Positions 5,724-40,803 of a stretch of DNA of 64,000 bases are shown piece after piece. The translations under genes and the position numbers were made by a program. Source of the stretch: Elusimicrobiota bacterium (lineage in GTDB: Bacteria; Elusimicrobiota; Elusimicrobia; Elusimicrobiales; UBA9959); NCBI GenBank assembly GCA_009773155.1, contig WOVA01000006.1, positions 56,293 to 120,292 on the forward strand, written 5' to 3'. How positions within the stretch are numbered: position 1 is the stretch's first letter; each line of letters opens with the position of its first letter. The notes under the pieces are model-generated. The model searched no databases. It saw only the letters and a program-made list of their open reading frames with translations, and was not told the DNA's origin.

Positions 5724-5751
5724 AGCCGCCCGGGACCGCCGACCCTGAATA

Positions 5752-8315: not shown

Positions 8316-8316
8316 G

Positions 8317-10430: not shown

Positions 10431-10431
10431 T

Positions 10432-10440
10432 TGGTATAAT
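10432..10440 (+). promoter_or_regulatory. Extended -10 promoter (TGnTATAAT) 9 nt before the ATG; probably gives a leaderless mRNA
   Basis: TGGTATAAT at 10432-10440; no Shine-Dalgarno before ATG 10450. Confidence 0.55.
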
Positions 10441-10449
10441 GATTTCGCG

Positions 10450-11808
10450 ATGATCAGGACCGGAACTTTGATAATAGGCGGCGGGCTGGCCGGACTTTCG
10501 GCGGCCATGACCCTTCGGGGCCGCAAAAAAATATTCCTCGCCGAAAAGGAGACCCGCTTCGGAGGCCTGGCGGCCACCGTGAGAAAAGGCGGCTTCCATT
10601 TCGACTATTCCGGCCATCTTCTTCATCTGCGCTGGCCCGAGACCACGCGCCTGATACTGGGCGCGCTGGGCTCCAATGTCCGCAGGATACGGCGCGACGC
10701 GCGCGTCTTCGCCCACGGCCGCTGGACGCCTTACCCCTTCCAGGCCAATCTCGCCGCCATGCCGCCGCGGGTCAGGTCCGAGTGCGTCTCGGGTTTCCTG
10801 CGCGCGCTGGCCGCCGGCGGAGGAGCGCCCGGCGACGGAACAGGGCGGCTTTGCCCGCAGTCGGTGCCGGGAGCACTGCGACCGGCCGGCAGCGAGACCT
10901 TCGATAAATGGAGCGGCCGCGTCTTCGGCGCCGGCATCTCGCGCTACTTCATGCTGCCCTACAACGCCAAGCTCTGGCAGTACCCGCTGGGCCGGCTCAC
11001 GACGGAATGGTGCGCGCCGTTCGTGCCGGTCCCCTCACCGGGCGACATAATAAAGGGGGCCTACGGCGCCGGCCGCCGCGCCATCGGCTACAACGCGGTT
11101 TTCCATTACCCGAAAAAGGGCGGCATCGGCGCTCTGGCCTCGGCCCTGGCAATGAAAGCCGGCGAGACACATCTGGGGATCGAAGCGGAGCGGGTGGACC
11201 TGCGCGCGCGCACCGCGCGCGTCCGCCACTTCGGGGAAATATCTTTCAAGCGCCTCATAAACACCGCCCCGCTCGACGAGTTCGTCGCGATGTGTTCCGA
11301 CGCCCCCGCGGCCGTGCGCCGCGCGGCGGGCCTGCTCCGCCGGAACACCGTATACGTGCTGAATATAGGCGCCAGGGGCGTTAAGTCGGATATGCACTGG
11401 GGCTATTTCCCGGGGACGGGCTTCCCCTTCTACCGCGCCGGCATCGCCAGCAACTTCTCGCGGGCGCTGGCCCCGTCCGGCGAGGCGTCCTTCTACATCG
11501 AGATAGCCACCGACGGCAGGGCGCTGGACCTGGAGTCGGCGGAGAAAGCCTGCGTCGCGGGCCTGCGGGCCTGCGGACTTATAAAGGACGCGCGGCAGGT
11601 CACGGAAAAGATGTGGCTGAAGATCCCCTGCGCCTACGTCATCTACGACGCGGACAGGGCGCGGGCCCTGCCGGTCATCTCCGGCTGGCTCAAAGAGCGC
11701 GGGGCGCGCTCCATAGGACGCTACGGGGCGTGGAAGTACTCCTTCATGGAGGAGAGCGTAAAGGAAGGCCTGGAGGCCGGCAGGGAGATCCTGGCCGGCC
11801 GGTCGTAG
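10450..11808 (+). CDS. FAD-dependent oxidoreductase (HemY/amine-oxidase/UDP-galactopyranose-mutase-like superfamily) carrying an in-frame repeat insertion
   Basis: GGGLAGL dinucleotide-binding motif, FDYSGHLL, PYNAKLW, GRYGAWKY. Confidence 0.8.
   Translation: MIRTGTLIIGGGLAGLSAAMTLRGRKKIFLAEKETRFGGLAATVRKGGFHFDYSGHLLHLRWPETTRLILGALGSNVRRIRRDARVFAHGRWTPYPFQANLAAMPPRVRSECVSGFLRALAAGGGAPGDGTGRLCPQSVPGALRPAGSETFDKWSGRVFGAGISRYFMLPYNAKLWQYPLGRLTTEWCAPFVPVPSPGDIIKGAYGAGRRAIGYNAVFHYPKKGGIGALASALAMKAGETHLGIEAERVDLRARTARVRHFGEISFKRLINTAPLDEFVAMCSDAPAAVRRAAGLLRRNTVYVLNIGARGVKSDMHWGYFPGTGFPFYRAGIASNFSRALAPSGEASFYIEIATDGRALDLESAEKACVAGLRACGLIKDARQVTEKMWLKIPCAYVIYDADRARALPVISGWLKERGARSIGRYGAWKYSFMEESVKEGLEAGREILAGRS
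10836..10889 (+). repeat. Family-1 two-hairpin repeat, in frame in the FAD oxidoreductase (GTGRLCPQSVPGALRPAG)
   Basis: cggaacagggcggctttgcccgcagtcggtgccgggagcactgcgaccggccgg matches the copies in pheS, dapF and the TPR gene. Confidence 0.9.
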
Positions 11809-11812
11809 AACT

Positions 11813-11903
11813 CGGAACAACGAGCCTCCGGCTCCACAGGTGCCGGGCGCTATGTCGCCCGGCCCCGGCACCGACAGCGGGCAATGCCGCCCTGATCCGG
11901 CCG
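11813..11903. repeat. Two family-1 repeats in opposite orientation between convergent genes (BIME-like; possible terminator)
   Basis: The + copy (11813-11862) shares its first 22 nt exactly with the pheT copy. The partial - copy (11864-11903) is the reverse complement of ggatcagggcggcattgcccgctgtcggtgccggg. Confidence 0.85.
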
Positions 11904-23286: not shown

Positions 23287-23877
23287 GTGGCCCACAAAAG
23301 AATACCAAAGGCCGCCCGCCGCGGGGGCCTCCCCGGCCTGCGGGAGACCTGGACCAGGACCCTCCAGCGGGTGCCCGGCAAAGCGGTCTCCTTCCGCGTG
23401 GACGAGGTGCGCCTGCCCAACGGCAGGAAGGCCCTGCGCGCCTACCTGGAGCACATAGGGGCGGTGGCGGTGCTGCCCGTCCTGGACGACGGGCGGATAG
23501 TGTTCGTCCGACAGCACCGCTACCCCGTCGGGCAGGACACCCTCGAGATCCCGGCCGGCAAGCTGAACGGTCCCGGCGACGCTCCCGCCGCGCGCGCCAG
23601 GGCGGAGCTGAGAGAGGAGACCGGCTATACGGCCTCCGGCCTGACCAGGCTGATGTCCTTCTGGCCCAGCACGGCCTTCTCCACGGAAACACTCCACGTC
23701 TACCTGGCCCGGGGCCTGAAAAAAGGCTCCCCCTGCCCGGACGAGGACGAATTCGTGGACGCCGAAATACTGACTTTCAAAAAAGCCTGGACGCTGGTGC
23801 GGAGCGGCCGCATAAAGGACGCCAAGACCGTGATCGCGCTGCAGGCGTGGAAGATAAAGGAGCTAGAAAACAGATGA
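23287..23877 (+). CDS. NUDIX hydrolase (ADP-ribose pyrophosphatase-like)
   Basis: EIPAGK...ARAELREETG Nudix box, DEDE, IKDAKT. Confidence 0.9.
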   Translation: MAHKRIPKAARRGGLPGLRETWTRTLQRVPGKAVSFRVDEVRLPNGRKALRAYLEHIGAVAVLPVLDDGRIVFVRQHRYPVGQDTLEIPAGKLNGPGDAPAARARAELREETGYTASGLTRLMSFWPSTAFSTETLHVYLARGLKKGSPCPDEDEFVDAEILTFKKAWTLVRSGRIKDAKTVIALQAWKIKELENR

Positions 23878-25853
23878 AATCCGACAACATCGACGAACTC
23901 TGCGTGAACACCCTCAGGACCCTCTCGATAGACATGGTGGGCCGGGCCGACTCCGGCCATCCCGGACTGCCGCTGGGAGCGGCGCCGCTGGCCTACGCCG
24001 TCTGGGCCGGCCATCTCAAATTCTCCCCCGCCGACCCGCTGTGGGCCGACAGGGACCGCTTCGTCCTTTCCGCCGGCCACGGCTCCTCCCTGCTCTATTC
24101 CATCCTGCACTCCTACGGCTTCGGCCTGGAGATGGAGGAGCTCAGGAACTTCCGCCAGCTGGGCAGCCGCACGCCGGGCCATCCCGAGCACGGCCACACC
24201 CCGGGCGTGGAGACCACCACCGGCCCGCTGGGGCAGGGCTTCGCCAACGCGGTCGGCATGGCGCTGGCCGAAAAGCTGCTGGCGGAGAAGCTCAACACGC
24301 CCGAGTTCAGCCCGGTGGACCATCACACCTACGCGCTGGCCGGCGACGGCGACCTGATGGAGGGCCTGAGCTACGAGGCGGCCTCGCTGGCCGGGACCAT
24401 GAAGCTGGGCAAGCTCATCTGCCTCTACGACTCCAACGGCATAACGATAGAGGGTTCCACGGACCTGGCCTTCACCGAGGACGTGAAGAAGCGGTTCCAG
24501 GCCCAGGAATGGCAGGTCATCGAAGTGGCCGACGGCAACAGCCTCGCGGAGCTCGACTCGGCCATCCGCAAGGCGAAGCGCGAGACGGAGAAGCCGTCGC
24601 TGATAATCGCGCGCACTCACATCGGCTTCGGCAGTCCCAAACAGGGCAAAAGCAGCGTGCACGGCGAGCCGCTCAAACCCGAGGAGATAGCCGCCACCAA
24701 GCGGACCCTGGGCTGCCCCCCCGACGAACCGTTCTGCATGCCGGAGGAGGCCCGCGCCCGCTTCGCGGAGACGGCCGCCGCCGGGGAACGCGGCAGGAAG
24801 AAATGGCTCAAGCTCTGGAAAAAATACAGTTCGGCCCATCCCGACAAGGCCGGGCTGGCCACGGCCATGCTGGGCGGCGAGGTGCCGGAAGATCTCTTCA
24901 AAGTGCCGGAAACTTTCTTCGAGAAACCGGTCGCCACGCGCGAGGCCTCCGGCAAGGTCATCAACCTCATGGCCGACAGACTGCCGGGGCTGACCGGCGG
25001 CGCGGCCGACCTCGGCCCGTCGACCAAGACCGATTTCACTAAGGAACCCGGCCGTACGCTGCATTTCGGCATACGCGAGCACGCCATGGGCTCCATACTC
25101 AACGGCCTGGCCCTGCACGGCGGGCTTATCCCGTTCGGCGCCACCTTCCTGGTCTTCTCCGACTATATGCGCCCAGCGCTGCGGCTGGCGGCCCTGATGC
25201 GGGCGCCGGCGGTCTTCGTCTTCACGCACGACGGCATCGGCGTGGGAGAGGACGGCCCCACCCATCAGCCCGTCGAGCACCTCATGAGCCTGCGCCTGAT
25301 ACCCGGCCTGCTCGTCCTGCGGCCGGCCGACGCCTGGGAGACGCTCTACGCCTGGGAGGCGGCCGTCAGGACCCGCCGCCCGGTCTGCCTGGCCCTGTCC
25401 CGCCAGAAGCTGCCGCTGCTGACGCAGTTCAGGGCGAAGGCGGCCGAAGGAGTGAAGCGCGGCGGCTACATACTCAAGGAGGCCGTGGAGACCCCCGACG
25501 TCGAGCTGATAGCCACCGGCTCGGAGGTCGAGCTGGCGCTGGAAGCCGCCGGCCTGCTGGACAAGAAGGGAATAGCGGCGCGCGTGGTGTCGATGCCCTC
25601 CTTCGAACTTTTCAGGGAACAGCCGGCCGACTATCGCGAAAAGGTCCTGTCTCCGGGCACGCCCAAACTCGCCGTGGAGGCGGGCAGGACCGTGGGCTGG
25701 AAGGACCTGGCGGGGACCGAGACCGCCGCGCTGGGAGTAGAGACTTTCGGCAGATCAGCGCCGGCCGGGAAGTTGTACGCCGACATGGGACTTACCGCGC
25801 AGAAGATAGCGGAGGAGGCCGCCGCGCTGACCAAGGGCAGAATGAAGACCTGA
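23874..25853 (+). CDS. tkt: Transketolase
   Basis: SGHPG, DRDRFVLSAGH, GHPE, TGPLGQG, GDGDLMEG, FGIREH, EDGPTHQP; start ATG 23874 overlaps the upstream TGA. Confidence 0.97.
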   Translation: MKSDNIDELCVNTLRTLSIDMVGRADSGHPGLPLGAAPLAYAVWAGHLKFSPADPLWADRDRFVLSAGHGSSLLYSILHSYGFGLEMEELRNFRQLGSRTPGHPEHGHTPGVETTTGPLGQGFANAVGMALAEKLLAEKLNTPEFSPVDHHTYALAGDGDLMEGLSYEAASLAGTMKLGKLICLYDSNGITIEGSTDLAFTEDVKKRFQAQEWQVIEVADGNSLAELDSAIRKAKRETEKPSLIIARTHIGFGSPKQGKSSVHGEPLKPEEIAATKRTLGCPPDEPFCMPEEARARFAETAAAGERGRKKWLKLWKKYSSAHPDKAGLATAMLGGEVPEDLFKVPETFFEKPVATREASGKVINLMADRLPGLTGGAADLGPSTKTDFTKEPGRTLHFGIREHAMGSILNGLALHGGLIPFGATFLVFSDYMRPALRLAALMRAPAVFVFTHDGIGVGEDGPTHQPVEHLMSLRLIPGLLVLRPADAWETLYAWEAAVRTRRPVCLALSRQKLPLLTQFRAKAAEGVKRGGYILKEAVETPDVELIATGSEVELALEAAGLLDKKGIAARVVSMPSFELFREQPADYREKVLSPGTPKLAVEAGRTVGWKDLAGTETAALGVETFGRSAPAGKLYADMGLTAQKIAEEAAALTKGRMKT

Positions 25854-25854
25854 G

Positions 25855-26940
25855 TTAAATGGCCCGCGCCCGACGCAGTCCCCATATCCCCAGGGCGAGG
25901 AAGACAAGCAGCGGTCCGAAGGCCGCCGTCAGGGGCCCTACCATCTCCACCTGCCCGGCGGACTGGCCGAACATCATGGCGGCCCAGAGCAGGAAGCCGG
26001 AGCCTATCGCGATCCCCAGGTTGAACAGCTTGCCGTGGCTGCCCAGCAGCAGCACCACGGCCGCGCCCAGCAGCGCCATGACGGGATTAGCCAGCGGCGC
26101 CGCCAGCTTTCCCCAGAAAACGGTCATCTCCTCGGCCGCCGGGGCGCCGATGAAGCGCAGCCTCTTTACCCGCAGAAGAAGCCCGCGCATGGAAATACCC
26201 TCGGGCACCAGCTTGTCTATCACCATGCTTCCGGGCGGCAGGGAGATCTCCGAGAGATGTTCCGCCCGGCTGGACACGGCCGGTCCCGAAGGCAGATATT
26301 CGGTCACGGAGGCGCCGTTGAACACCCAGCGCAGCCGGCCCGGGTCCCATACCGCCGACTCCGCCGCTATCTCACCGATAAGTTCCCTGTCCCTGTAAAA
26401 ATCTGCGGAAACCTTCTCCATCCTGCCCGCTCCGCCGTCGAAGACCCTGGCGGACAGGAAGACGCCGCCGCCCACGGAGAAGGAGACGTCCCGCTGCACC
26501 AGCCTGCGCCAGTCGCGGCTGCCGCGCAGGTCCTCGTAATACAGTTCCTGCGCCTTCATGTAAGCCGGCGGCACCAGCAGCTCCTGCACGGCCAGGTGTA
26601 GCGCGGCGGCGCCCAGCGAGCAGGCCAGCAGCGGCGCCAGCATCTGCGCCGGCCTGTAGCCGCCGGCCAGCCCGGCCTTCCACTCCCCCCTCGACATCAG
26701 GTCCCCGAGCGCGAAAAGAGCGGCCATGAGCGTGGCCATGGGTATCACCCTGGCGGCGAAGTAAGGCGAATGCAGCGCTATATACGAGAGGAAGAGCCCG
26801 GCCCCCGCGTCGTTGCGGCTGAAGACGGCCAGTTTGTCGAAAGCCGTGCCGAACATGATCAGCGCCAGGAAAACGCCCAGCCCGAAGGCGAAAGGGCCCC
26901 AGAAAAGCGAAGCGACGTACCTGAAGAATACCTTTTTCAT
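25855..26940 (-). CDS. lptG: LPS export ABC permease LptG (LptF/LptG family)
   Basis: YjgP/Q-family topology, GE...LAGG.RP motif, tandem with lptF (ATGA overlap at 26937-26940). Confidence 0.75.
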   Translation of the reverse strand: MKKVFFRYVASLFWGPFAFGLGVFLALIMFGTAFDKLAVFSRNDAGAGLFLSYIALHSPYFAARVIPMATLMAALFALGDLMSRGEWKAGLAGGYRPAQMLAPLLACSLGAAALHLAVQELLVPPAYMKAQELYYEDLRGSRDWRRLVQRDVSFSVGGGVFLSARVFDGGAGRMEKVSADFYRDRELIGEIAAESAVWDPGRLRWVFNGASVTEYLPSGPAVSSRAEHLSEISLPPGSMVIDKLVPEGISMRGLLLRVKRLRFIGAPAAEEMTVFWGKLAAPLANPVMALLGAAVVLLLGSHGKLFNLGIAIGSGFLLWAAMMFGQSAGQVEMVGPLTAAFGPLLVFLALGIWGLRRARAI

Positions 26941-28058
26941 CTGAAACTCAGTTTCCTGCGCCACAGCCAGGCCCCCGCGAGCGCGCCGGCCGCGGTGGGG
27001 GCCATCATGGCCCAGGGGAATAAAGAGGGGTCCTTGCGGCTCAGGACCATGCCGCCCACGGTCAGGCCGTAATAAAGGAATATGACCAGCAGGCTGGCCG
27101 CGAAGCCCGACGAGCGGGCCTTGGAATCAAGGACCAGGCCCAGCGGGGCGCCGAGCAGGAAGAACACCAGCGGCGCCAGCGCCACGGAAATACGGCTGAC
27201 TATCTCCATCCTGTAGCGCAGGTCCAGCCCGGCCTCAGCCACGCCGGCGGACAGCCTGCCCAGCAGCGCCGGAGTGGTCAGCTCGCGCGGGCGCAGCTGG
27301 CGGGCCTCGGCGTCGCCCGAAAAGAAGGGGATCAGCGTGCGGTAGGAAGAGAAGCCTCCGTGCATGAGCCTGGTCCTGGCGGAGAAGGCCGACTGGCTCA
27401 GCGTCCCGTCGTCCAGCTCGATCTTTATCCCCAGCGCGGGCGCCACGCCGTAGCGGCCCTGCGCGGCGCTTATCCTCATCAGTTGCGGTTCCGACCCGGC
27501 CCGCTGCACGCGCCGCGTCAGCTTGACGCCGGCCAGCCGTCCCGTGACCGGGTCGGCCTCGTCGGCGTAGAAAGTCCAGTCCGCGATCCTGCGGAAGGTG
27601 CGGGGGCGCAGTTCGATATGGGTTATGCGCGAAGCCATCGCTTCGACGTAATCGTTGGAGCGCTTGAGCCCCCGCGGCCCGGCCCAACCGCCCAGCGCGG
27701 CCGTCAGCAGCGCCGCGGCCGCCGCCGCCCAGATCAGCGGCGAGAGTATGCGCCCGAAGGAGAAACCGGCGGCGCGCAGCGCCATTATCTCGCCGTCGCG
27801 CGAGAGCTGACCCAGGCTCATCAGCAGCGCCATCAGGAAGGCGATCGGCACCACCAGCGCCAGCACATTGGGCAGCAGGTGCAGCAGCGTGCGGGACATG
27901 AGCAGGAAAGAGAAACCCTGCAGGACCCCCTCGTGCAGTATCTGGAGGAAGTTCACCATCACGATGAGCGCGGAAAAGATAAAAACGGAAAGCAGGAAAA
28001 AGCCGCCGAAGACCCCGAGCACGTAGCGCTGCGCGACAGTTATCCTCATCATTTTCAT
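26937..28058 (-). CDS. lptF: LPS export ABC permease LptF (LptF/LptG family)
   Basis: LPNVLALVVPIAFL, LSRDGEIMALRAAG, LGAPLG. Start is one of the ATGs at 28058, 28052 or 28049. Confidence 0.8.
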   Translation of the reverse strand: MKMMRITVAQRYVLGVFGGFFLLSVFIFSALIVMVNFLQILHEGVLQGFSFLLMSRTLLHLLPNVLALVVPIAFLMALLMSLGQLSRDGEIMALRAAGFSFGRILSPLIWAAAAAALLTAALGGWAGPRGLKRSNDYVEAMASRITHIELRPRTFRRIADWTFYADEADPVTGRLAGVKLTRRVQRAGSEPQLMRISAAQGRYGVAPALGIKIELDDGTLSQSAFSARTRLMHGGFSSYRTLIPFFSGDAEARQLRPRELTTPALLGRLSAGVAEAGLDLRYRMEIVSRISVALAPLVFFLLGAPLGLVLDSKARSSGFAASLLVIFLYYGLTVGGMVLSRKDPSLFPWAMMAPTAAGALAGAWLWRRKLSFR

Positions 28059-28105
28059 TTTATTATATATTTTGATTATAATACTACGATAGACCGCATC
28101 AGCGG

Positions 28106-28130
28106 GGGACACCATGCGGCATGGTGTCCC
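28106..28130. repeat. Family-2 palindrome GGGACACCATG-CGG-CATGGTGTCCC (perfect 11-bp stem)
   Basis: Near-identical copy at 56774-56800 and a degenerate copy at 49148-49174. Confidence 0.85.
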
Positions 28131-28168
28131 GGTACCATTTGCCGCCGCGCTTTCTCGTTTATTATTAC

Positions 28169-31100
28169 GTGAAGAACGCCCTGCCCATACTCCTGCTCCT
28201 CCTGGCCGCCCACGCCGGCGCCCAGGAGCATTTCACCGCGCCGCCGCCGTCGCAGGGCAGGTTCCTGCTGCTGGACCGCGACGACGCGTCGTCGCTGCTC
28301 TCCGGCGGAGAGGACGAGGATAAGTCCGGCGAAGCGGCGGAAGAAGAAGGGCCGGGACTGGACTCGCTGCTCGACCGCCTGCCGATCTCCGACTATTCCC
28401 AGGACAGGTGGAACAAGGTGCGCGGCGACATAGAGACCGGCCGCTTCCAGAGGGAGGAGCCGGCGCCGCTGGCCCGGGTCGCCGTCTCCACCGCGGTCCC
28501 CGAGTCCCCCCAGCCGGAGCTGGAGTTCACGGAATCGGGGACCTCTCTCTCCCTGACCGGGCGCAAAGTCATCGGCTTCAACTATACCGGCAAGCGCTAC
28601 ATGAACGAGCAGACCAACGTCACGCGCCCGCGCAGCCTGAGCCTGTTCGAGATCAGCCAGCAGCTGCAGGTGCGCATGCAGGGCAAGGTCGGGACCAAGA
28701 TCACGGTCAACGTGGACTACGACGACACCAAGGAGGACAGGCAGGACATCTCCGTCGTCTACCAGGGCGACCCCAACGAGGTGGTGCAGAACGTCTCGTT
28801 CGGCGACATCGACCTCTCGCTGCCGGCCACCGAGTTCGTCTCCTACAACAAGCAGCTCTTCGGCATCAGGGCCGACCTGCGCGCCAAGGGCTTCGCGCTG
28901 ACCTTCATCGGCTCGCGCACCAAGGGCCAGACCAAGGTGAGGCAGTACACAGGCAATACCCGGTTCCAGACGGTAGATCTGCAGGACGTCAACTACCTGC
29001 GCCGGCGCTACTACGACATAACCTTCGGCAACACCGCCAGGCTCCCGATACGGCCCGGGTCGGAACTGGTCTACCTCGATACCCAGAGCAATCTGCCGGT
29101 GGACAACCTGGTCATCTCTTCGATAACCGCGGACGACCTGGCGCAGCAGACCACGACCTATACCGGTCGTTTTCAGAGGCTAAGCCCCGGCATAGACTAC
29201 ACGGTGGACTACGCCAAGGGCATACTGACCTTCAGCCGCGGCATGAACGTGCAGGACGTGGTCATCATCGACTATACCAACGCCAACGGGACGCTCCTCT
29301 CCCAGAATGCGTCCACCACAACTCTCAACACTCTGGGCTCGGGCAGGCTTAAGCTGGTAAAGACGCTCAACGACGCGCCCATAAGCACCGCCCCGGTACA
29401 GGCCGACTTCGACGCGCAGGTAGGCTGGAACCGGGAAATAAAGACATATTACTCCATCGGTCAGACCAACCTGGTGCGCGACGACGGCCGCGGCAGCTTC
29501 ACGCTCAAGCTGCAGGACTTCAACCGCAACGAGGTCGCCGCCCCCAATACCGCGGGACAGACCGTCAAATACCCGGACAATATCGAGGTGGACTTCGAGC
29601 AGGGCATCTTCAGGCTGACCTCCCCGTTCCAGGACCCCGACCCCGGATACGCCGGCACGCCCGACAGGCAGATCTATTCCGCGGCCCCGGCCGCCAGGCG
29701 GCTCTTCCGCGTGGAATATTCCTACAGGTTCAAGACCTTCCTGCTCGAGCCTTCGATAGTCGTGAACTCGGAGATCGTGACCGTGGACAGGCAGAAGCTG
29801 CGCAAGAACGAGGAATACTTCATCGACTATGACTCGGGTTTCATCACCTTCTACTACCCGGACCGCATAGGCCAGACCAGCAGCATCGAGATCAGCTACG
29901 AAGTCTCGCCTTTCGGCGGGGCCGGCAACCTCTCGCTCGTCGGCGGGCGCGTCTCCTACGACTTCGGGGCCCTCTCGCTGGGCAGTTCGCTGCTCTACCA
30001 GGGCGGCGTCAAATCGGCCGCCGTGCCCAGCGTGACCGACCTGACCAGCAGTATGTTCGTCTACGAGGGAGACGCGCAGTTCAGGAACCTCAACGTCTTC
30101 GGCATGAAGATGAACGTGGGCGGAGAGATAGCGCAGTCGCGCCTCAATCCCAATCTCAACGACTTCGCGCTGGTGGACAATATGGAGGGCGTCAAGCAGG
30201 AAGACTCGCCCGCGATGGACCGCAACTACTGGCAGATCGCGGCCAATCCCGCGGCGGGCCCGGCCGACCCGACTTCCGTCGCCTGGGAGACGGTGAACGT
30301 AAAATCCAAAGACATAAATCCGGCGTCCACCTCCGACGGCAGCCAGCAGGTCCTGTCCATAAATTACGATTTCACCCGGTCCACCGAGGTATCGATAGTC
30401 TATCCCCTCTCCGCCACGGGCCTGGACTTCACCCAGAAGACGGCCATAGAGCTGGTGCTCCTCGGCCAGGGCGCCGGGGGGCCGCAGATCAACCTCCATT
30501 TCGGCCAGATCAACGAGGACGCCGACGGCCGGGGCGGGCAGAACTTCGCCTGCGCCAACGGCGTGGCGCTGCTGAACGCGCCCAAAAGCGAGGACCTCAA
30601 CTGCGACGGCCAGCTCTCCACCGCCGAGGATATCGGCTGGCTCTACGATCCCGTGGGTCAGCCCAACGAGATCCGCTACGGCGCCAATAACGGCCGCATA
30701 GACACGGCCGACCTCAACCGCAACGGGCGCCTGGACCAGCAGGACTTCAGCGGCGGCTCCTTCGGCTACGCGAGCGGGACTAAATTCACCGACACCACGG
30801 ATTCCATCGCCAAGGACCATGTGGACTTCAGCGGCTGGCGGACCTGGAACCGGCCGCTCTTCATCGCCTCCTCGGATACCTTCAAGTGGAACGCAATCAA
30901 GCAGATCCGCGTGACCCTGAAAAAAGGCGCCGGCGCCGGCGCTCTCAACTCCGGCGCCATCCGTTTCGCCCGCATCGCCGCCGTGGGCAATACCTGGACG
31001 GTGCAGCAGAGCGCCACCGCGGGCACGCTGCAGCTGCTGGGCGTCAACAACATAGACAATCCCGGGTATATCCCGATCTACAACGCGGGCGGCGCCGCGG

Positions 31101-33535
31101 CGCAGGTATACAACGACCTCTACGGCTCGGTCTCGGAACAGCGCGAGCGGACCAACACCGCCAATGTCAGCGAGCAGGCGCTGTCGGTGACCTACGACTC
31201 CATAGTTTCGACCTCCGCGGTATACGCCTTCCGCAAGTACCCGCAGCCGCTGGACATCTCGCAGCACGGAGAGTTCCGCTTCCTCCTCTTCTCCAGCGTG
31301 ACGGCCAACGCCAGCTTCTACCTCAAGATCGGCGACGAGAACAACTATTTCAAGGCCTCCGTGGCCCCCTCCGCGCTGACAGGCTGGCGGCTCATAACTC
31401 TTCGCCAGGAGGACGTCAACGGCGACAGGATCCCCGACGTCTGGACCAACGCCGGCCCTTACGCGGTGGAGATCTCCTCCCGCGGCAACCCCAGCCTCCA
31501 GCAGGTCTCGGGCATACTGATAGGCGTGGAGACCTCCGGGGGACAGCAAAGCGGGACTTTCTACCTCAACGAGATCCACCTGGCCAAGCCCCTGACGCGC
31601 ACCGGCGAGGCGAAAAAAGTCGAGGCCTCGTTCGAGATACCGGGCTGGATGAGCTTCGGCGGCAAGCACCGCGAGACCGACCGCAGTTTCCAGACGCCGG
31701 TCTCGGTCATCTCCAACCAGGACAACGAGCAGCAGACGGCCTACCTGAACTTCAACAGGCTCCCGTTCTTCCCGCTGACGTTCACCGGCTCCCGCCAGGT
31801 CACGGTGACCCCGAACACCTACGTCACCGGCGGCAGCAACCTGGTCACCTCGCTGCAGCAGGGCCGGGTCAAGAAGCTCGACGGCGCGGCCGCCGGCAAC
31901 CTCTCCCTGGGCGCGCTGCCCAAACTCTCTCTCAACTACGCCGGCAGCCGCACCGAGTACGACCTGCTGCTGCGCGACGACAGCAGGGACGCCTACAGCG
32001 GCGCCCTGGCCTATAATCCGCCCTTCCAGTTCTTCCTGCTGCCGCGCAGCCTGAGCCTGACCTATTCGCTGACCAGCAACCGGGTGGACTACCGCAGGGA
32101 CGACCTGCTGGCGGCGGGCGCCGCCCTGGCCGGCCTCCACCGCACTTCGGAGCGCGTGGACGCCTACGGCGCGCGGCTGACCTTCGTCCCCTGGCGCGGC
32201 TCGACCTTCAACCCCTCGTACAGCCTGCAGGAGACGCGCGAACGGAAGGACGAGCTCTTCAGCGGGAACAGCTACGACTATCCCAAGGCGCGGCAGCAGA
32301 CCGCCGACTTCAACTCGAACTTCATGCTGGCGCGCTGGTTCAATCCCGCGGTCAACTATTCCGTCACCACGATGGAGAACAACAATATCGTGGTGACCAC
32401 GGTGACCGTGGTCGCCGCCTCTGCCGTCTACGCTCCCGGCGAGATAAAGACCGTCAACCGCACGGCGCAGGGCGGCGTGAGCCTGAACTTCAGCGTCAAC
32501 GACCTGGCCCCCCGCAACCGCCTGCTGCGCTCCCTGGTCGTCTCGTCCAACTTCCAGATACAGGACGGCGACACCTGGCAGAACGTGGAACGGGATTACG
32601 ACACGGCGGACAAGCTCTGGGTGCGCGACAGGCTGGGGCCCAGGAATTCCCTGGCGCAGAGGACGTCCCTGACCACGCGCGACACCTTCACCTCCAATCA
32701 GCGCTGGCAGCCGCTGGAAGGCTACACACTGAAGGGCCGCCTGTCTCCGCTGTCGACCATTTCAATAACCAACAACTTCTCCAACAGCGACCAGCGCTCC
32801 GACGTCACGGGGACGCAGTCGCGCTCGGTCAACCGCACCTTCCCCGACGCCATACTCTCGCTCTCCCAGCTGGAGGTCCTGGCGGGCGCCCAGTCCTGGG
32901 CCCGCGGCGCCACGATGAACGTGAAGTATTCCAACAACACCAACGAGACCCGGCTGATAAGCCTCGACCTGACCCGCTCTTACGGCATGGACCTGCGCTT
33001 CCGCCTGCTGGAAAAAGTGGACGCCGCGCTCAGCTACAATCACCGGTTCACGCAGCGGAAGGACCTGCGGCTCGACCAGATAACGCAACAGACAGAGCGC
33101 CACGACGCCACCGTACAGGGGACTTTCGACTATAGGAAGTTCCGCTTTACCCCGAAGCTGGATTTCTCCGTCGACCACGGCAAGACCGGCCTGGGCGTGG
33201 TCAACCAGGACCTGACCGTGATAACCCCCAGCCTGCTGCTCAAGACCGACTTCCAGGCCCCCAAGGGCCTGCGCCTGCCTTTCATGAAGCAGGCTATGGT
33301 CTTCAGCAACCGCATAGTCTGGACCACGACGCTGAGCTACGCGCTGCGGAAGTCCCCTATAACGGTCTCCGAGAACACGCGTCTTTTCTCGCTCAACAGC
33401 AGCGCCGACTACGAGGCCGCCAAGAACCTGCGCCTGACCTTCAACGCGTCGGTGCAGCGGCTCTGGCACAAGTACCTGAAGCAGGAGGATTATCTCTCCT
33501 ACATGGCGGGCAGCACGCTTACTTTCCAGTTCTGA
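28169..33535 (+). CDS. Very large SprA-like outer-membrane beta-barrel protein (~1790 aa)
   Basis: Signal peptide from GTG 28169. KITVNVDYDDT...YQGDPNEVVQNVSFGDIDLSL...QLFGI resembles the SprA N-terminal region. EF-hand-like EDLNCDG, DLNRNG and EDVNGD motifs, long amphipathic beta strands, C-terminal TFQF. Confidence 0.7.
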   Translation: MKNALPILLLLLAAHAGAQEHFTAPPPSQGRFLLLDRDDASSLLSGGEDEDKSGEAAEEEGPGLDSLLDRLPISDYSQDRWNKVRGDIETGRFQREEPAPLARVAVSTAVPESPQPELEFTESGTSLSLTGRKVIGFNYTGKRYMNEQTNVTRPRSLSLFEISQQLQVRMQGKVGTKITVNVDYDDTKEDRQDISVVYQGDPNEVVQNVSFGDIDLSLPATEFVSYNKQLFGIRADLRAKGFALTFIGSRTKGQTKVRQYTGNTRFQTVDLQDVNYLRRRYYDITFGNTARLPIRPGSELVYLDTQSNLPVDNLVISSITADDLAQQTTTYTGRFQRLSPGIDYTVDYAKGILTFSRGMNVQDVVIIDYTNANGTLLSQNASTTTLNTLGSGRLKLVKTLNDAPISTAPVQADFDAQVGWNREIKTYYSIGQTNLVRDDGRGSFTLKLQDFNRNEVAAPNTAGQTVKYPDNIEVDFEQGIFRLTSPFQDPDPGYAGTPDRQIYSAAPAARRLFRVEYSYRFKTFLLEPSIVVNSEIVTVDRQKLRKNEEYFIDYDSGFITFYYPDRIGQTSSIEISYEVSPFGGAGNLSLVGGRVSYDFGALSLGSSLLYQGGVKSAAVPSVTDLTSSMFVYEGDAQFRNLNVFGMKMNVGGEIAQSRLNPNLNDFALVDNMEGVKQEDSPAMDRNYWQIAANPAAGPADPTSVAWETVNVKSKDINPASTSDGSQQVLSINYDFTRSTEVSIVYPLSATGLDFTQKTAIELVLLGQGAGGPQINLHFGQINEDADGRGGQNFACANGVALLNAPKSEDLNCDGQLSTAEDIGWLYDPVGQPNEIRYGANNGRIDTADLNRNGRLDQQDFSGGSFGYASGTKFTDTTDSIAKDHVDFSGWRTWNRPLFIASSDTFKWNAIKQIRVTLKKGAGAGALNSGAIRFARIAAVGNTWTVQQSATAGTLQLLGVNNIDNPGYIPIYNAGGAAAQVYNDLYGSVSEQRERTNTANVSEQALSVTYDSIVSTSAVYAFRKYPQPLDISQHGEFRFLLFSSVTANASFYLKIGDENNYFKASVAPSALTGWRLITLRQEDVNGDRIPDVWTNAGPYAVEISSRGNPSLQQVSGILIGVETSGGQQSGTFYLNEIHLAKPLTRTGEAKKVEASFEIPGWMSFGGKHRETDRSFQTPVSVISNQDNEQQTAYLNFNRLPFFPLTFTGSRQVTVTPNTYVTGGSNLVTSLQQGRVKKLDGAAAGNLSLGALPKLSLNYAGSRTEYDLLLRDDSRDAYSGALAYNPPFQFFLLPRSLSLTYSLTSNRVDYRRDDLLAAGAALAGLHRTSERVDAYGARLTFVPWRGSTFNPSYSLQETRERKDELFSGNSYDYPKARQQTADFNSNFMLARWFNPAVNYSVTTMENNNIVVTTVTVVAASAVYAPGEIKTVNRTAQGGVSLNFSVNDLAPRNRLLRSLVVSSNFQIQDGDTWQNVERDYDTADKLWVRDRLGPRNSLAQRTSLTTRDTFTSNQRWQPLEGYTLKGRLSPLSTISITNNFSNSDQRSDVTGTQSRSVNRTFPDAILSLSQLEVLAGAQSWARGATMNVKYSNNTNETRLISLDLTRSYGMDLRFRLLEKVDAALSYNHRFTQRKDLRLDQITQQTERHDATVQGTFDYRKFRFTPKLDFSVDHGKTGLGVVNQDLTVITPSLLLKTDFQAPKGLRLPFMKQAMVFSNRIVWTTTLSYALRKSPITVSENTRLFSLNSSADYEAAKNLRLTFNASVQRLWHKYLKQEDYLSYMAGSTLTFQF

Positions 33536-34242
33536 TGCTTACAAAACATATCTGGGGCCTGCTGCTTAACGCGCTGCTGCCGCGCACCTGCGCGCATTGC
33601 GCCGAGGACCTGCCTGCCGGCACGGAGCAGCCGCTGTGTGGGGCCTGCCTCACTTCGCTTGAGCGCCCGGCCGGGCCCCTGTGCCCGGTCTGCGGCCTGC
33701 CCGGCGCGGACGGCCCCTGTCCCGCCTGCCGGGAGGCCCCCCGCCCCTTCGACCTGGCCCGCTCAGCCTTCCTGTTCACCCCCCCGCTGCGCTCGCTGAC
33801 CCACGCTTTCAAGTACTCGGGCAGGACCTCCCTGGCCCGGCCGCTGGCGCTGCTGATGGCGGCGGAACTGCCGCGCTGCCCGGAGCTGGGGACTTTCGAC
33901 GCCGTGGTGCCGGTGCCTCTGCACCCGTCGCGCGAGCGCCGGCGCGGCTACAACCAGGCCGCGCTGCTGGCGCGGGAACTGGCGGGGCTGTCGGGCTCTT
34001 CTTTCGAACCGGGAGCGGTGAGGCGCGTCCGCGAGACGCGGCCGCAGGTGGACCTGCGCAGGCGGGAGAGACTGGAGAACGTGCGGGGGGCTTTTGAGGC
34101 GGGGCCCGGGGCGAAGGGCCGCCGCTTCCTGGTGGTGGACGACGTGGCCACCACGCTGGCCACGGCCGGCGACGCGGCGCGGGCGCTCAAAGAGGCCGGC
34201 GCGGCGGGGGCCGCGGTCTTCACGCTGGCCCGCGAAGCGTAA
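33535..34242 (+). CDS. comF: ComF family protein (double zinc ribbon + PRTase)
   Basis: CAHC/CGAC/CPVC/CPAC, VPLHPSR..RRGYNQ, VVDDVATT. Confidence 0.85.
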   Translation: MLTKHIWGLLLNALLPRTCAHCAEDLPAGTEQPLCGACLTSLERPAGPLCPVCGLPGADGPCPACREAPRPFDLARSAFLFTPPLRSLTHAFKYSGRTSLARPLALLMAAELPRCPELGTFDAVVPVPLHPSRERRRGYNQAALLARELAGLSGSSFEPGAVRRVRETRPQVDLRRRERLENVRGAFEAGPGAKGRRFLVVDDVATTLATAGDAARALKEAGAAGAAVFTLAREA

Positions 34243-36817: not shown

Positions 36818-38119
36818 ATGCGTGAAATAACACTGGAATTCAGGAAGATAGTCGGGGAAGGCAAGGCCCTGGGCCGCGCCGACGGCAAGGTCGTGTTCTG
36901 CTACGGCGTGCTGCCGGGCGAGACGGCGCGCGTGCGCATCAAGCACGAGAAGCGCAACTGGGCCGAGGCCGAGCTGCTGGAGGTCATCACCCCCTCCGCC
37001 GACCGCCGCGAGCCGCGCGAGGACCATTACCTGAGCTGCTCACCCTGGCAGGTCATGGATTACCCCCTGCAGGCCGAGACCAAGAAGGGCCTGATCGAGG
37101 ACCTTTTCTACCAGACCCTGAAGGAAACTATAAAACTGGATTTTTTCCGTACCGCTAAGACGCACTACGGCTACCGGACCAAGATAGAGTACAGCTTCAC
37201 CGAGGCGGACGGACGGCTGGAGCTGGCCTTCCACAAGCGCGGCTCCTACGGCGAGAAATACGCGCTGAAGTCAGGCTGCGCGCTGATAAGCGGCAACACC
37301 AACGCCGCCGCCGCGGCCATAACGGAAGAACTGCGCAAGAAAGGCGCCAAAGCTTCCGACCTTAAATCGCTCATAATCCGGGAATCCAGGGACCCGGAAG
37401 GCAGAATAGCGGCGCTTTTCGTCAAGAGCCGCGACCTCGACGTGACCGACCTGGCGCTGCCTCCCGGGTTGAACGGCTTCACGGCCGCCTGGTCCAATCC
37501 CTTAAGCCCCGTCAGCCAGGCCGACGAGGTCCTTTTCTCCTCCGGCGACGACCATATCACCGAGACGCTGCCCGGCGGCGAGTTCTCGTCGCGGGTGAAA
37601 CTCTCCTACGGCTTCGACTGTTTCTTCCAGAACAACATGGAGTTATTCGCCCAGGCGCTCGACGAGATGGGCCGCCACTGCTTCAAATGCGGCAAGATGG
37701 TGGACCTCTACTCCGGCGTGGGCGCGATCGGCCTGTCGCTGCGCCAGTACGCCGACAAGGTCTACGCCGTGGAATCCTCCCCCGCGGCCGTGCGCTACGC
37801 CGCGCATAACGCGCTGGAGAACGGCGCCTCCAACTTCGAGGCCGTCTGCGGACTTTCGGAGAAGACGGGCGAGGAGGCGCTGCATGGCGCCGAGATACTG
37901 CTGGTGGACCCGCCGCGCGCCGGCCTGCACATCAAGGCGGTAAAATCGATACTGGCCGCCCAGCCTAAAAGAATAATCTATCTCTCCTGCAATCCGATAA
38001 CGCAGGGCAGGGACGCGGCCTTCTTCCTGGAAAGGTACAAGTTGTCCGCCTCGGGAGGCTTCGACTTCTACCCCAACACCCCCCACGCCGAGACCATGAT
38101 GGTCTTCGACCTCAGATGA
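36818..38119 (+). CDS. rlmD: 23S rRNA m5U methyltransferase, RlmD/RumA family (TRAM domain)
   Basis: N-terminal TRAM, YGYRTKIE, FFQNN, DLYSGVG, VDPPRAG, YLSCNP, DFYPNTPHAE. Confidence 0.85.
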   Translation: MREITLEFRKIVGEGKALGRADGKVVFCYGVLPGETARVRIKHEKRNWAEAELLEVITPSADRREPREDHYLSCSPWQVMDYPLQAETKKGLIEDLFYQTLKETIKLDFFRTAKTHYGYRTKIEYSFTEADGRLELAFHKRGSYGEKYALKSGCALISGNTNAAAAAITEELRKKGAKASDLKSLIIRESRDPEGRIAALFVKSRDLDVTDLALPPGLNGFTAAWSNPLSPVSQADEVLFSSGDDHITETLPGGEFSSRVKLSYGFDCFFQNNMELFAQALDEMGRHCFKCGKMVDLYSGVGAIGLSLRQYADKVYAVESSPAAVRYAAHNALENGASNFEAVCGLSEKTGEEALHGAEILLVDPPRAGLHIKAVKSILAAQPKRIIYLSCNPITQGRDAAFFLERYKLSASGGFDFYPNTPHAETMMVFDLR

Positions 38120-39843
38120 AGAAGCCCGGGGCGGCCTCGCTCTGGGCCATCCTGGCTTTCGCCGCCGCTTTCGCGGCCTACTCACCCACGCTGCGCCTCG
38201 GGTTCGTCTGGGACGATCACCGGATGATAGAGGAGAACGCGCGGATCCGCTCCTGGTCGGCCGACAATATCCGCTCCTGGTTCCGCGGCGACCCTTTCGG
38301 CCAGGGGCTCAACTACTACCGCCCGCTTCAGACCTTCTCCAACGCCGTGGATTTCTCTATCTGGCGGCTGAACCCCGCCGGCTATCACCTGACCAACCTC
38401 CTCTTCCACTCCGGCGGCGCCGCGGTCTCGGCGCTGGCCCTGTCGGCGGCCGGCTTCCCGGCGGCGGCGGCCGGCGGGGCGGCGCTGCTGCTGGCCTGCC
38501 ACCCCGTCGTCGTAGAACAGCTCATCGTAGTAGCGGGGCGCGCCGAGGTGATGGCTTATTTCTTCACCGTCCTGACGGTGTGGCTGCTGGCCAGGCCCGG
38601 CCCCGTTTCTTTCGCCGGGGCGCTGATGTCCTTCATCCTCGCCATGCTGTCAAAGGAGACCGGCGTAATAGCACCTCTCCTGGCCCTGCTCCTCTTTTAT
38701 CATCGCGGCACCCTGCGGCGCGACTGGAAAAAGACGATCCCCCTGCTCCTCCTGATCCCCTTGTATCTCGCGCTGCGCGGGCGGGCGCTGGGCGGCATGC
38801 CGCTGACGGAACTGGGCGCGGTCGAAATGTTATTGCGCGCCGCGGCGCGCCTTCCGGCCGACATCTTCCATTACCTCGCCGCGGCCGTCGCGCCGCTGGA
38901 CCTCCATTCCCACCGCGCCAGGCCCGAGCCGGCCGCCTGGCTGGCGGCGGTTTTTGGCCTGGCCCTCGCCGGCGGACTGTTCACGCTGGCGCTGCGCGGC
39001 GGCAGGACCGCGCTGTTCCTGGCCGGCTGGTACCTGGTCAATCTCGCCCCCAAGGTCCCGCTGCTCCTGGGCAACGACCTCATGCTGGACCATTGGGCAT
39101 ACGGCGCTAACCTGGCGCTGTTCCTGTGGTTCGCGTCATGGCTGGCGGGAACGTCAAAGCCGCGCGTCAGGAACGCGGCGCTGGCCGGCGCGGCGCTGCT
39201 CCTGGCCGCCGTCGGCTGGCTGAACGTCTCGCGGCGCGGCGACGACCTGAAAATATACGAGCACGCGCTGCCCAGGACTTTCTCCGCCCCGCTGCGCTAC
39301 AACCTGGCCCGCGAATATTTCCTGCGCGGAGACTTCGCCCGCGCCGAAAGGCTGCTCGAAGAGATACTGCAGCGGGACCCTTCCAACGAGATGTACCTCA
39401 ACGGCCTGGCGCTGGCGCGCATGAACACGGGGCGCGCGGCGGAAGCGGCCGCCATACTGGCCGGCGCGGCGGCGGAAGGCGGCTACGCCCCGGAAACGCT
39501 GCTGAACCTTTCCCTCGCCCTCGAAAAAGCCGGCGACGCCCCGGCCGCGGAAGCCGCCGCCCGGCGGCTGGCGCTGGAGTTCTCTAACTATCCCGCCGGC
39601 TGGAAGCGGCTGGCCGATATGCGGATGAGGTCGGACGACGGGCGCGAGGCGCGCGCGTCGCTGGAGAAAGCGCTGGCCCTGGACCCTTACGACGCGGAAA
39701 CGCTGGGCAAGCTGGGCGCGCTGGAGGCCGGGGATAAAAACTACGCCCGGGCCGAAGAGCTCTGGCGCAGGGCGCTGAAGCTGGACCCGGGCAATGTTTC
39801 GCTGAAAAAAAACCTGGAAAGGCTCGAGAGCCTCAGGCGCTGA
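38116..39843 (+). CDS. TMTC-like membrane glycosyltransferase with C-terminal TPR repeats
   Basis: FVWDD, YYRPL, GYHLTNLLFH, HPV...RAE, SKETG, then a TPR array. Confidence 0.75.
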   Translation: MKKPGAASLWAILAFAAAFAAYSPTLRLGFVWDDHRMIEENARIRSWSADNIRSWFRGDPFGQGLNYYRPLQTFSNAVDFSIWRLNPAGYHLTNLLFHSGGAAVSALALSAAGFPAAAAGGAALLLACHPVVVEQLIVVAGRAEVMAYFFTVLTVWLLARPGPVSFAGALMSFILAMLSKETGVIAPLLALLLFYHRGTLRRDWKKTIPLLLLIPLYLALRGRALGGMPLTELGAVEMLLRAAARLPADIFHYLAAAVAPLDLHSHRARPEPAAWLAAVFGLALAGGLFTLALRGGRTALFLAGWYLVNLAPKVPLLLGNDLMLDHWAYGANLALFLWFASWLAGTSKPRVRNAALAGAALLLAAVGWLNVSRRGDDLKIYEHALPRTFSAPLRYNLAREYFLRGDFARAERLLEEILQRDPSNEMYLNGLALARMNTGRAAEAAAILAGAAAEGGYAPETLLNLSLALEKAGDAPAAEAAARRLALEFSNYPAGWKRLADMRMRSDDGREARASLEKALALDPYDAETLGKLGALEAGDKNYARAEELWRRALKLDPGNVSLKKNLERLESLRR

Positions 39844-40803
39844 TCACTCCCCCGCGACCCACGCGGCGGACCGGACCCCCGTCACCTTACCCTTGAACCC
39901 TTCCACCCAGGCGTTATAGCGGGTCTGCACCTGCTTTCCTTCGCCAAGGTATTCTGGATTGAGAGCGTTCTTCACGAAACCCTCCCCGACGGGAAAAGCC
40001 GTGACGAGAACGGCGTGCGGTCTGGAAGAATCCTTCACTGAATAGACAAGCAGGTAGGCGTTGCCGCCGGAGGTCACGGACCTGAAAGGCAGGAAGTCGG
40101 TACGCAGCGAGACGCCGCGTTTGCGGGAGAGGGAAACCGTCTCGGTCAGCCTGAAATGCCCCGGGGCCTTCCAGCCGCGCGCGGCGGAGCCGCAGGCGTA
40201 GGACGCCCTGGCCAGCTTAGCGGCGGCCGCGGCGTCGTCGGAGAAGGCCGCGGCGCCGGACACGCAGGTTATATTGGCCAGCAGCGTGCCTTCGGCCGGA
40301 GACGGCCCCAGCGCGCCGCGCGCGAAGCCCAGGCCCGCCTCTATGTCGTCGCGCACCCAGCGGGCGCGCTTGAAGCCGAACTTCGTCGGCAGCAGGCTGA
40401 ACAGGTAGCCGTAGGCGTGTTCCATGCCGGCGTGCACTATCTTCCCGCGCGGGCCGGGCAGGTCCAGTTCGCCGGCGAGGAAGGACAGGATGGAATCGTG
40501 GACGATAGTGGCGCGGACCATCTCGTCGAAATTGACGCTCTCGCCCCAGAGTTCCTTGAGGCCCGTATTGAGCTTGTCGGAGGCCAGCTGCATGGCCAGC
40601 CCCGGGGCGTAGTCGGCCAGCACCGGCGACAGAGGCAGGCCCTTAGCGGCGTTCTCCTCCATCAGGCGGGCCATGCCGGCCCAGGGGCAGTCGAGCCCGT
40701 CCTCGGCGGCGGGCTCGCCGGGCTTGGCCGGGGCCGGGCACTGGTAGGCGTGCAGGGCGGCGGAAAACAGGAACAGCGGGGCGAAAAATATCGCGCGTTT
40801 CAT
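39844..40803 (-). CDS. Hypothetical exported protein
   Basis: 319-aa ORF with signal peptide and typical codon bias; coupled to the upstream small gene. Confidence 0.6.
   Translation of the reverse strand: MKRAIFFAPLFLFSAALHAYQCPAPAKPGEPAAEDGLDCPWAGMARLMEENAAKGLPLSPVLADYAPGLAMQLASDKLNTGLKELWGESVNFDEMVRATIVHDSILSFLAGELDLPGPRGKIVHAGMEHAYGYLFSLLPTKFGFKRARWVRDDIEAGLGFARGALGPSPAEGTLLANITCVSGAAAFSDDAAAAAKLARASYACGSAARGWKAPGHFRLTETVSLSRKRGVSLRTDFLPFRSVTSGGNAYLLVYSVKDSSRPHAVLVTAFPVGEGFVKNALNPEYLGEGKQVQTRYNAWVEGFKGKVTGVRSAAWVAGE

Follow-up and report, generated by a model that had tools for sequence, protein, structure and literature searches.

The stretch of DNA analysed here, called the window below, is 64,000 nucleotides long and was taken from contig WOVA01000006.1 (positions 56,293 to 120,292) of an Elusimicrobiota bacterium. 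Near its middle lies one long open reading frame (ORF), at 28121..33535 on the forward strand, which encodes 1804 amino acids (aa) when counted from its first ATG and resembles SprA of Flavobacterium johnsoniae and Sov of Porphyromonas gingivalis, the outer-membrane translocons of type IX secretion systems (T9SS). This SprA-like gene, designated the pore gene, has a divergent pair of lptF- and lptG-like genes upstream and a comF-like gene downstream. The GTG at 28169 is likely to be its true start and matches the N-termini of 25 full-length homologues; residues are numbered, up to F1804, according to the 1804-aa form. Coordinates of the gene and of its features are given in Table 1.

Several parts of the protein are strongly conserved. 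In an alignment of homologues, the region of aa 136-298 is rich in invariant columns. Further on, at aa ~795-885, come calcium-binding-type loops (EDADG..., DLNCDGQLSTAED and DLNRNGRLDQQD), in which E799, D800, D802, G805, C811, C828, D829, N857, G858, D861, D864, N868 and D872 are invariant in 26 homologues; the D, N and G positions of the loops and the two cysteines, C811 and C828, are thus kept across homologues of 47-90% identity. Downstream of these loops, a weak Pfam match to FG-GAP_3 was found at aa 1062-1108, and the last two residues, Q1803 and F1804, are also invariant among homologues. An earlier note on this DNA, made from its letters, had described an ORF of ~1790 aa with a signal peptide, an SprA-like N-terminus, calcium-type loops and a C-terminal Phe. 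All of this held: the protein has 1788 aa from the GTG, it begins with the signal peptide MKNALPILLLLLAAHAGA, it matches the SprA family model TIGR04189, and it ends in ...TLTFQF. The same note had placed the gene divergent from lptFG and coupled to comF, and a pair of PF03739 genes was indeed found upstream and a TGATG overlap downstream.

Searches that start from the single sequence (phmmer against the PDB, and a Pfam scan) returned no relevant match, and profiles were needed. The NCBIfam model for Sov/SprA, TIGR04189, matched the protein in four stretches (E = 1.9e-31, 108.3 bits), the best of which places aa 136-298 on model positions 92-254. When a profile of 26 homologues was compared with the PDB, SprA chains alone were matched (E = 1.7e-17), again in four colinear stretches: positions 149-281, 520-598, 981-1059 and 1084-1181 of the query correspond to 160-293, 700-778, 1316-1403 and 1466-1564 of F. 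johnsoniae SprA. Since the order of the four stretches is the same in both proteins, some 600 residues have been lost piecemeal. Unlike SprA, which has ~2,400 aa, the Elusimicrobiota protein has ~1,790 aa, and the loss is spread over all the regions between the stretches.

The structure was modelled as two overlapping pieces, aa 100-1290 (N-terminal) and aa 1100-1804 (C-terminal), because the protein exceeds the 1200-aa limit of the structure tool. At the level of sequence, no similarity to SprA can be detected in the C-terminal piece. Its AlphaFold2 model (mean predicted local distance difference test, pLDDT, of 82.3) consists almost entirely of long antiparallel strands, and a Foldseek search with it gave the SprA structures 8gl8, 8gl6, 6h3j and 6h3i as the top four PDB matches (E = 5e-10 to 7e-8). 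The query-normalised template-modelling score of this piece was 0.44-0.50 for SprA, compared to at most 0.30 for barrels of 22-26 strands, and LptD structures were matched at E ~6e-4, compared to 5e-10 for SprA. With the N-terminal piece, the top four matches were SprA once more (E = 2e-36 to 1e-24), and the next one stood at 8e-5. SprA (6H3I, 6H3J, 8GL6, 8GL8) is therefore the only strong PDB match of both halves, and the signal peptide and the giant beta-barrel with inserted extracellular domains are further points of likeness to SprA and Sov. By DSSP, ~27 strands were counted in aa 1165-1802, one in aa 1143-1157 and four in aa 604-676, to which the N-terminal piece adds ~5-7 low-confidence strands at aa 194-276.

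Judged by sequence profiles and predicted fold, the protein is a distant but real homologue of SprA/Sov, and we place it in the SprA family, below the family threshold, as a member that is both compact and divergent. TIGR04189, the family profile against the PDB and Foldseek with both pieces thus agree with the giant SprA-family barrel of the earlier note. That note had proposed a comparison of models with SprA; it was run, with SprA as the top match of either piece and a strand number of roughly 36 ± 3. Two findings that the note had named as contrary to its reading, a model other than a 36-strand barrel and a host belonging to the FCB group (Fibrobacterota, Chlorobiota and Bacteroidota) with a canonical T9SS, were looked for and neither was obtained, the exact count of 36 being more than two pieces can establish.

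The closest homologues, with up to 89% identity, all come from metagenome-assembled genomes (MAGs) of Elusimicrobiota/Elusimicrobiales, and all homologues with a source name carry the label 'hypothetical protein'. These homologues and the NCBI taxonomy, in which Elusimicrobiota lies outside the FCB group, bear out the earlier impression that the organism does not belong to Bacteroidota. The locus was found in groundwater DNA metagenome runs only. The pore gene is single-copy in its own genome (G000), a 2.76-Mb Elusimicrobiales MAG, and it is intact and single-copy in 141 of the 151 Elusimicrobiota genomes, which amounts to 61 of 63 genera; the genomes without it are mainly very small ones of a single genus. 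When large ORFs that have an aromatic residue at the C-terminus were searched for other giant barrels, BamA, a TamA-like protein, TonB-dependent receptors and non-barrel proteins were all that turned up.

A whole-library profile search yielded 2,015 clusters of relatives, of which 645 had E <= 1e-30. Ranging from 1,650 to 2,500 aa, these proteins make up a continuum that extends to some over the TIGR04189 cut-off, such as P0215 and P0226 (265-269 bits). These two have fn3/CBM-like N-terminal extensions and belong to the same ~50%-identity group as P0287 and P0300, SprA relatives of 2,070-2,200 aa from 'candidate division FCPU426' MAGs. Shorter SprA relatives were seen in WOR-3 and Hydrogenedentota MAGs.

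Like SprA and Sov, the Elusimicrobiota pore occurs with PorV-family carriers and with cargo that bears type-A C-terminal domains (CTDs). The type-A T9SS sorting domain TIGR04183 was over its cut-off in all eight Elusimicrobiota genomes tested. Seven proteins of the pore's own genome passed it (best 40 bits, cut-off 23), and with a hidden Markov model (HMM) of our own the count rose to 14 ORFs with type-A CTD tails, corresponding to ~13-14 secreted proteins; the N-termini of the CTD cargo are signal peptides. For the carriers, the PorV model gave 12 sub-cut-off matches in the own genome, and relatives reach 40. Most of the Elusimicrobiales genomes searched have 12-40 PorV-family matches each, compared to only 2-3 weak ones in family f2, whose genomes are small. 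An iterated HMM of our own brought the number in the own genome to 15 PorV/PorQ-family paralogues, unlike the SprA/Sov systems with one general PorV. The four PorV-like proteins that were scanned covered the full length of the PorV/PorQ model NF033709 with 135-160 bits (cut-off 90); on the PorV equivalog NF033710, the barrels scored 46-74 bits, against a cut-off of 250.

Cargo and carrier genes are mostly neighbours. In the own genome, 9-10 PorV-like genes are placed directly 3' of a CTD cargo gene on the same strand, with a gap of -3 to 271 bp, and the paired cargo proteins, of 726 to 8,331 aa, have a Sec signal peptide and a type-A CTD tail. At the level of coordinates, pairing of this kind was seen again in at least six further genomes. 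None of the PorV-family and CTD genes detected in the own genome lies inside the 64-kb window. Two relatives have still larger open frames ending in a T9SS-type CTD, one of 12,265 aa at G003:C22 (~129 kb), followed by a PorV-like gene, and one of 16,223 aa at G005:C54 (~25 kb), and both are putative, extremely large cargo proteins of the pathway.

This layout recalls the type-B system SprB-SprF of F. johnsoniae, in which a cargo gene precedes its own barrel gene, with a barrel for each cargo, giant adhesin-like proteins among them; type-B CTD cargo is described with its cognate PorP/SprF-type carrier directly downstream (PMC9143113 as cited in PMC12204202; PMC10994853). Unlike in SprB-SprF, however, among the models scanned it is the type-A one, TIGR04183, that fits the Elusimicrobiota tails, and PorV/PorQ NF033709 that fits the barrels.

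A direct genomic link between the pore and these modules was found in genus g32, whose genomes are of 1.0-1.4 Mb. There, a PorV-like gene is located directly upstream of the pore gene, and at one locus (L155) a pair of genes, for a 390-aa and a 517-aa protein, replaces lptFG at that place, comF being still downstream. Each of the six g32 genomes that lack the pore is also free of PorV-family genes, and each of the six that carry it has between one and six of them. This co-loss is supportive, but not decisive, because the genomes concerned may form one reduced clade.

We then asked for the motor, the ring and the sortase of a canonical T9SS, with three Bacteroidota genomes found through a 16S signature as positive controls in place of the built-in ones, which have no T9SS: G021 (Flagellimonas), G022 (Chryseobacterium) and G023 (Sphingobacterium). 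GldL (TIGR03513) was over its cut-off in none of 13 Elusimicrobiales genomes, compared to all three controls, and GldM (TIGR03517) in none of 21 genomes. GldK (TIGR03525) had no match in the own genome; in relatives, partial matches of at most 68 bits were obtained, limited to C-terminal model positions ~214-407, and these are read as generic domains of the sulfatase-modifying-enzyme type. Two controls gave 609 and 379 bits for GldK, over the cut-off, and the third gave gene fragments of up to 203 bits. The gldKLMN operons of the controls were also retrieved, GldM and GldN being verified by NCBIfam, and HMMs for GldL, GldM and GldN were built from them; run on ORFs from all six frames of the own genome, they gave a best E-value above 1. 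For GldN, phmmer found nothing either. The catalytic domain of PorU was not found, the NF033707 matches spanning CTD positions ~950-1094 only, in a search in which one of the three controls was positive; the Chryseobacterium PorU pieces match CTDs only. As far as sequence models can tell, the canonical T9SS motor (GldL/GldM) and ring (GldK/GldN) were thus not found in the own genome. The pore further differs from SprA and Sov in that its host is outside FCB, GldKLMN is not detected, and its gene lies between lptFG and comF.

Another candidate for an energy source was seen next to some of the cassettes. The own genome is flagellum-poor, and its two FliG_C ORFs, of 656 and 500 aa, adjoin PorV-like/CTD cassettes (G000:C50:6894-7211 and G000:C66:17295-17606, both on the minus strand). 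The cassette on C50 holds the CTD protein of 8,331 aa, at C50:10455-35450. FliG_C is found beside such cassettes in G003, G008 and G087 as well. It is absent, however, from G013, G047 and G070, three genomes that keep the pore, and is therefore not the general power source of the pore.

These inventories change part of what the earlier note had proposed. Its statement that no porK/L/M/N or porV is present in the window stands for the part that was scanned: no other T9SS gene was found among the ten genes flanking the ORF (~19.7-40.8 kb), and no detected PorV or CTD gene falls within the window. The genome search that it had suggested for PorV, PorK, GldLM and CTDs turned up PorV-family barrels and CTDs, but not GldK, GldL or GldM. 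Its idea of a T9SS-related channel with a different motor or cargo is consequently retained in its first half, given that GldKLMN was not found, and not in its second, as the cargo is of the canonical type-A CTD kind. The stand-alone channel that it had offered as another option does not fit a genome with 15 PorV/PorQ-family barrels and ~13-14 CTD proteins, mostly encoded as adjacent pairs.

We consider it probable that the pore is a SprA translocon of compact form, serving a T9SS-like pathway of export and anchoring that either has no motor or is powered in another way. On the best reading, this single-copy gene, present in nearly all of the phylum, would encode the core of a T9SS-like pathway of outer-membrane export in Elusimicrobiota. 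The homology, fold similarity and gene inventory reported above can be placed in a sequence of transport steps by analogy with F. johnsoniae, where the type-A CTD binds PorV loops inside the SprA pore and the complex leaves through a lateral opening (PMC10994853). Sec would first carry the cargo over the inner membrane. The CTD would then bind to loops of the PorV-like carrier that is its partner, this carrier being docked at a lateral opening of the SprA-like barrel, and the cargo would exit sideways with the carrier still bound. Finally, the carrier would stay as a surface anchor, one barrel per cargo, much as the PorP/SprF-type carriers do for Bacteroidota type-B cargo; in F. johnsoniae, type-B cargo uses alternative carriers, which afterwards anchor it (PMC10994853). 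Release of the carrier-cargo complex may be spontaneous or may be powered by another machine.

T9SS is said to be confined to Bacteroidota or to the FCB superphylum (PMC4793230, PMC7906972, PMC11205867), and within the portions of the literature that our search covered, no paper appears to link T9SS to Elusimicrobia. A phylum-wide SprA relative outside FCB, accompanied by CTDs and PorV carriers and lacking the motor, challenges both this confinement and the requirement for GldLM. A motor-less system would let researchers test which type IX steps are intrinsic to the translocon. The phylum is poorly studied, and the pore is probably also the way out for its giant surface proteins, which reach 8,000-16,000 aa.

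A number of observations weigh against this interpretation. The TIGR04189 score of 108.3 bits is below the curated equivalog cut-off of 200 bits, and Pfam SprA_N (PF14349) has no match at E <= 1 in the protein, although weak or precomputed matches exist in some homologues. The model of aa 100-1290 is of low confidence (pLDDT 56), and the strand total of roughly 36 ± 3 is a sum over two pieces, with closure, cap and lateral opening outside the models. The conserved neighbours of the pore are lptFG and comF, not secretion genes. Four genomes (G057, G033, G100 and G153) have PorV-family genes though the pore was not found there, which may reflect an assembly gap or a search miss, or else pairs that work without the pore. 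The search for PorU was weakly controlled, with only one of three control genomes positive. In F. johnsoniae, release from SprA is an energy-requiring step, the GldLM energy chain being held necessary to pull carrier-cargo complexes off SprA (PMC10994853), and GldLM was not found here. Lastly, the link between pore and cargo is one that we infer from homology, gene inventory and co-occurrence in genomes.

A more specific version can be put forward tentatively. It is possible, but in our estimate falls short of likely, that Elusimicrobiota, and probably neighbouring candidate phyla like FCPU426, have an outer-membrane-only type IX pathway with no GldKLMN, with a release step that is spontaneous or otherwise driven, and with a pore coupled to LptFG. 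Its parts would be the compact SprA pore, one PorV-type carrier and anchor per cargo, and the type-A CTD signals; the FliG-domain/stator clusters beside giant-cargo cassettes could drive release in some lineages. If this outer-membrane-only pathway is true, the translocon module would be older than, and separable from, the Bacteroidota motor.

Alternatively, the protein could be a giant pore derived from SprA whose housekeeping role is a different one, for example in outer-membrane biogenesis or in taking up or releasing large solutes. The cargo/PorV pairs would then be self-contained display modules that make no use of the pore. The pore is kept as a single-copy core gene even in genomes of 1.0-1.7 Mb with very few PorV or CTD genes, and this, the four genomes with PorV-family genes in which no pore was found, and the failure to detect a T9SS motor would all be accounted for. 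We nevertheless regard it as unlikely. In g32, the genomes that have lost the pore have lost every PorV-family gene as well, and a PorV-like gene adjoins the pore gene; moreover, translocation of folded proteins of 700-8,000 aa is not known for the 14-strand barrels of the PorV family.

The neighbourhood of the pore gene raises another explanation, in which the barrel would work with the Lpt machine, either as an exit for lipopolysaccharide (LPS) or another glycolipid, or as a coupler of LPS export to the attachment of surface proteins. The lptF-lptG pair is divergently adjacent to the pore gene in nine of the ten loci examined, including loci of another class of the phylum, and such a role would explain this conserved pairing. 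In the window, the stretch 28053-28110 between lptF and the pore gene is AT-rich and looks non-coding, and a simple sigma-70 scan of the whole intergenic region (28053..28168) found no consensus promoter; that region is presumed to be a shared promoter region. The pairing suggests that the pore may be co-regulated with LPS export. Also in line with an Lpt role, the T9SS cargo of P. gingivalis is attached to anionic LPS (established; summarised in PMC10994853), and Pfam LptD (PF04453) gave nothing significant in 21 Elusimicrobiales genomes, the E. coli and Caulobacter controls being positive.

Like LptD, then, the SprA-like protein is a large outer-membrane barrel encoded beside Lpt genes. Unlike LptD, it lacks the LptD_N jellyroll: neither PF03968 (OstA/LptD_N) nor PF04453 matches it, the genome scans place no such domain there, and the fold is far closer to SprA than to LptD. 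A weak LptD_N match in a relative led to a separate candidate in the own genome, a 689-aa protein whose N-terminal jellyroll matches TIGR04409 (E = 9.5e-7) and LptD NF002997 (E = 7.9e-5) and which is conserved in the order (tblastn E = 2e-75 to a 693-aa protein of G013). From its sequence, it is likely to be a divergent LptD missed by PF04453. As lptC, lptA and lptB are present in the own genome too, the hypothesis that the SprA-like protein replaces a missing LptD was rejected. Together with the replacement of lptFG by a cargo/PorV-like pair in g32, this makes an Lpt role of the barrel quite improbable in our view.

The comF-like gene had led the earlier note to raise DNA uptake. The start of this gene overlaps the pore stop codon (TGATG, 33533-33537), as in translational coupling, it lies 3' of the pore gene in most loci across the phylum, and its homologues also carry a phosphoribosyltransferase domain. 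An outer-membrane DNA-uptake channel working with ComF is nonetheless very hard to credit, since the case comes down to an adjacency that is not universal (L030 has no comF downstream, and in L005 comF is encoded on the other strand), no other competence gene adjoins the pore, proteins of the ComF family work on the cytoplasmic face of the inner membrane, known outer-membrane DNA uptake occurs through PilQ secretins, and sequence, fold and the CTD and PorV inventory all favour protein export.

Table 1. Position and supporting evidence of the pore gene, its parts, its neighbours and related loci (positions refer to the window unless a genome or locus is named)
Feature	Position	Strand	Evidence or remarks
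Compact SprA/Sov-family outer-membrane translocon gene	28169..33535	+	1788 aa from GTG 28169; alternative ATG 28121 gives 1804 aa
Signal peptide MKNALPILLLLLAAHAGA, predicted cleavage before QE	28169..28222	+	Translation; position in line with the N-termini of homologues
Conserved N-terminal SprA region, aa 136-298, most SprA-like stretch	28526..29014	+	TIGR04189; F. johnsoniae SprA alignment
Extracellular-type insertion, aa ~795-885, carrying calcium-binding-like loops of the DxNxDG / DxDxDG type	30503..30775	+	Sequence
C-terminal barrel part, aa ~1143-1804, ~27-28 long beta-strands, end ...TLTFQF	31547..33532	+	AlphaFold2 model
lptF-like LPS export permease	26937..28115	-	PF03739 E = 3.8e-61; divergent; true start probably ATG 28052
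lptG-like LPS export permease	25855..26964	-	PF03739 E = 2.8e-54
AT-rich divergent intergenic region between lptF and SprA-like gene, ~116 bp	28053..28168	.	Presumed shared promoter region
comF-like gene, double zinc ribbon (DZR_2)	33535..34242	+	PF18912 E = 5.7e-8
Divergent LptD candidate, 689-aa outer-membrane protein	G000:C76:3024-5093 (locus L032)	-	N-terminal LptC/LptD-type jellyroll
390-aa protein with weak CHU_C (type-B CTD-like) tail, and 517-aa PorV-like/TPR protein	L155 (G070:C10:8000-21500), 3655-11870		Co-oriented with pore and comF

Two further parts of the neighbourhood deserve mention. A 526-aa ORF downstream of lptG (23700-25280, minus strand) was considered as a partner of the pore and discarded as the shadow of a 668-aa ORF on the other strand (23847-25853, plus strand); it has no family match, and its composition is rich in Arg, Gly and Ala and unlike that of coding sequence. 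The 668-aa ORF is called a transketolase, on the basis of its own sequence and of a transketolase gene at the same place in locus L006. On the far side of the pore gene, a 319-aa ORF with no Pfam match (39844-40803, minus strand) lies beside a TPR/GT-C-like gene (38116-39843).

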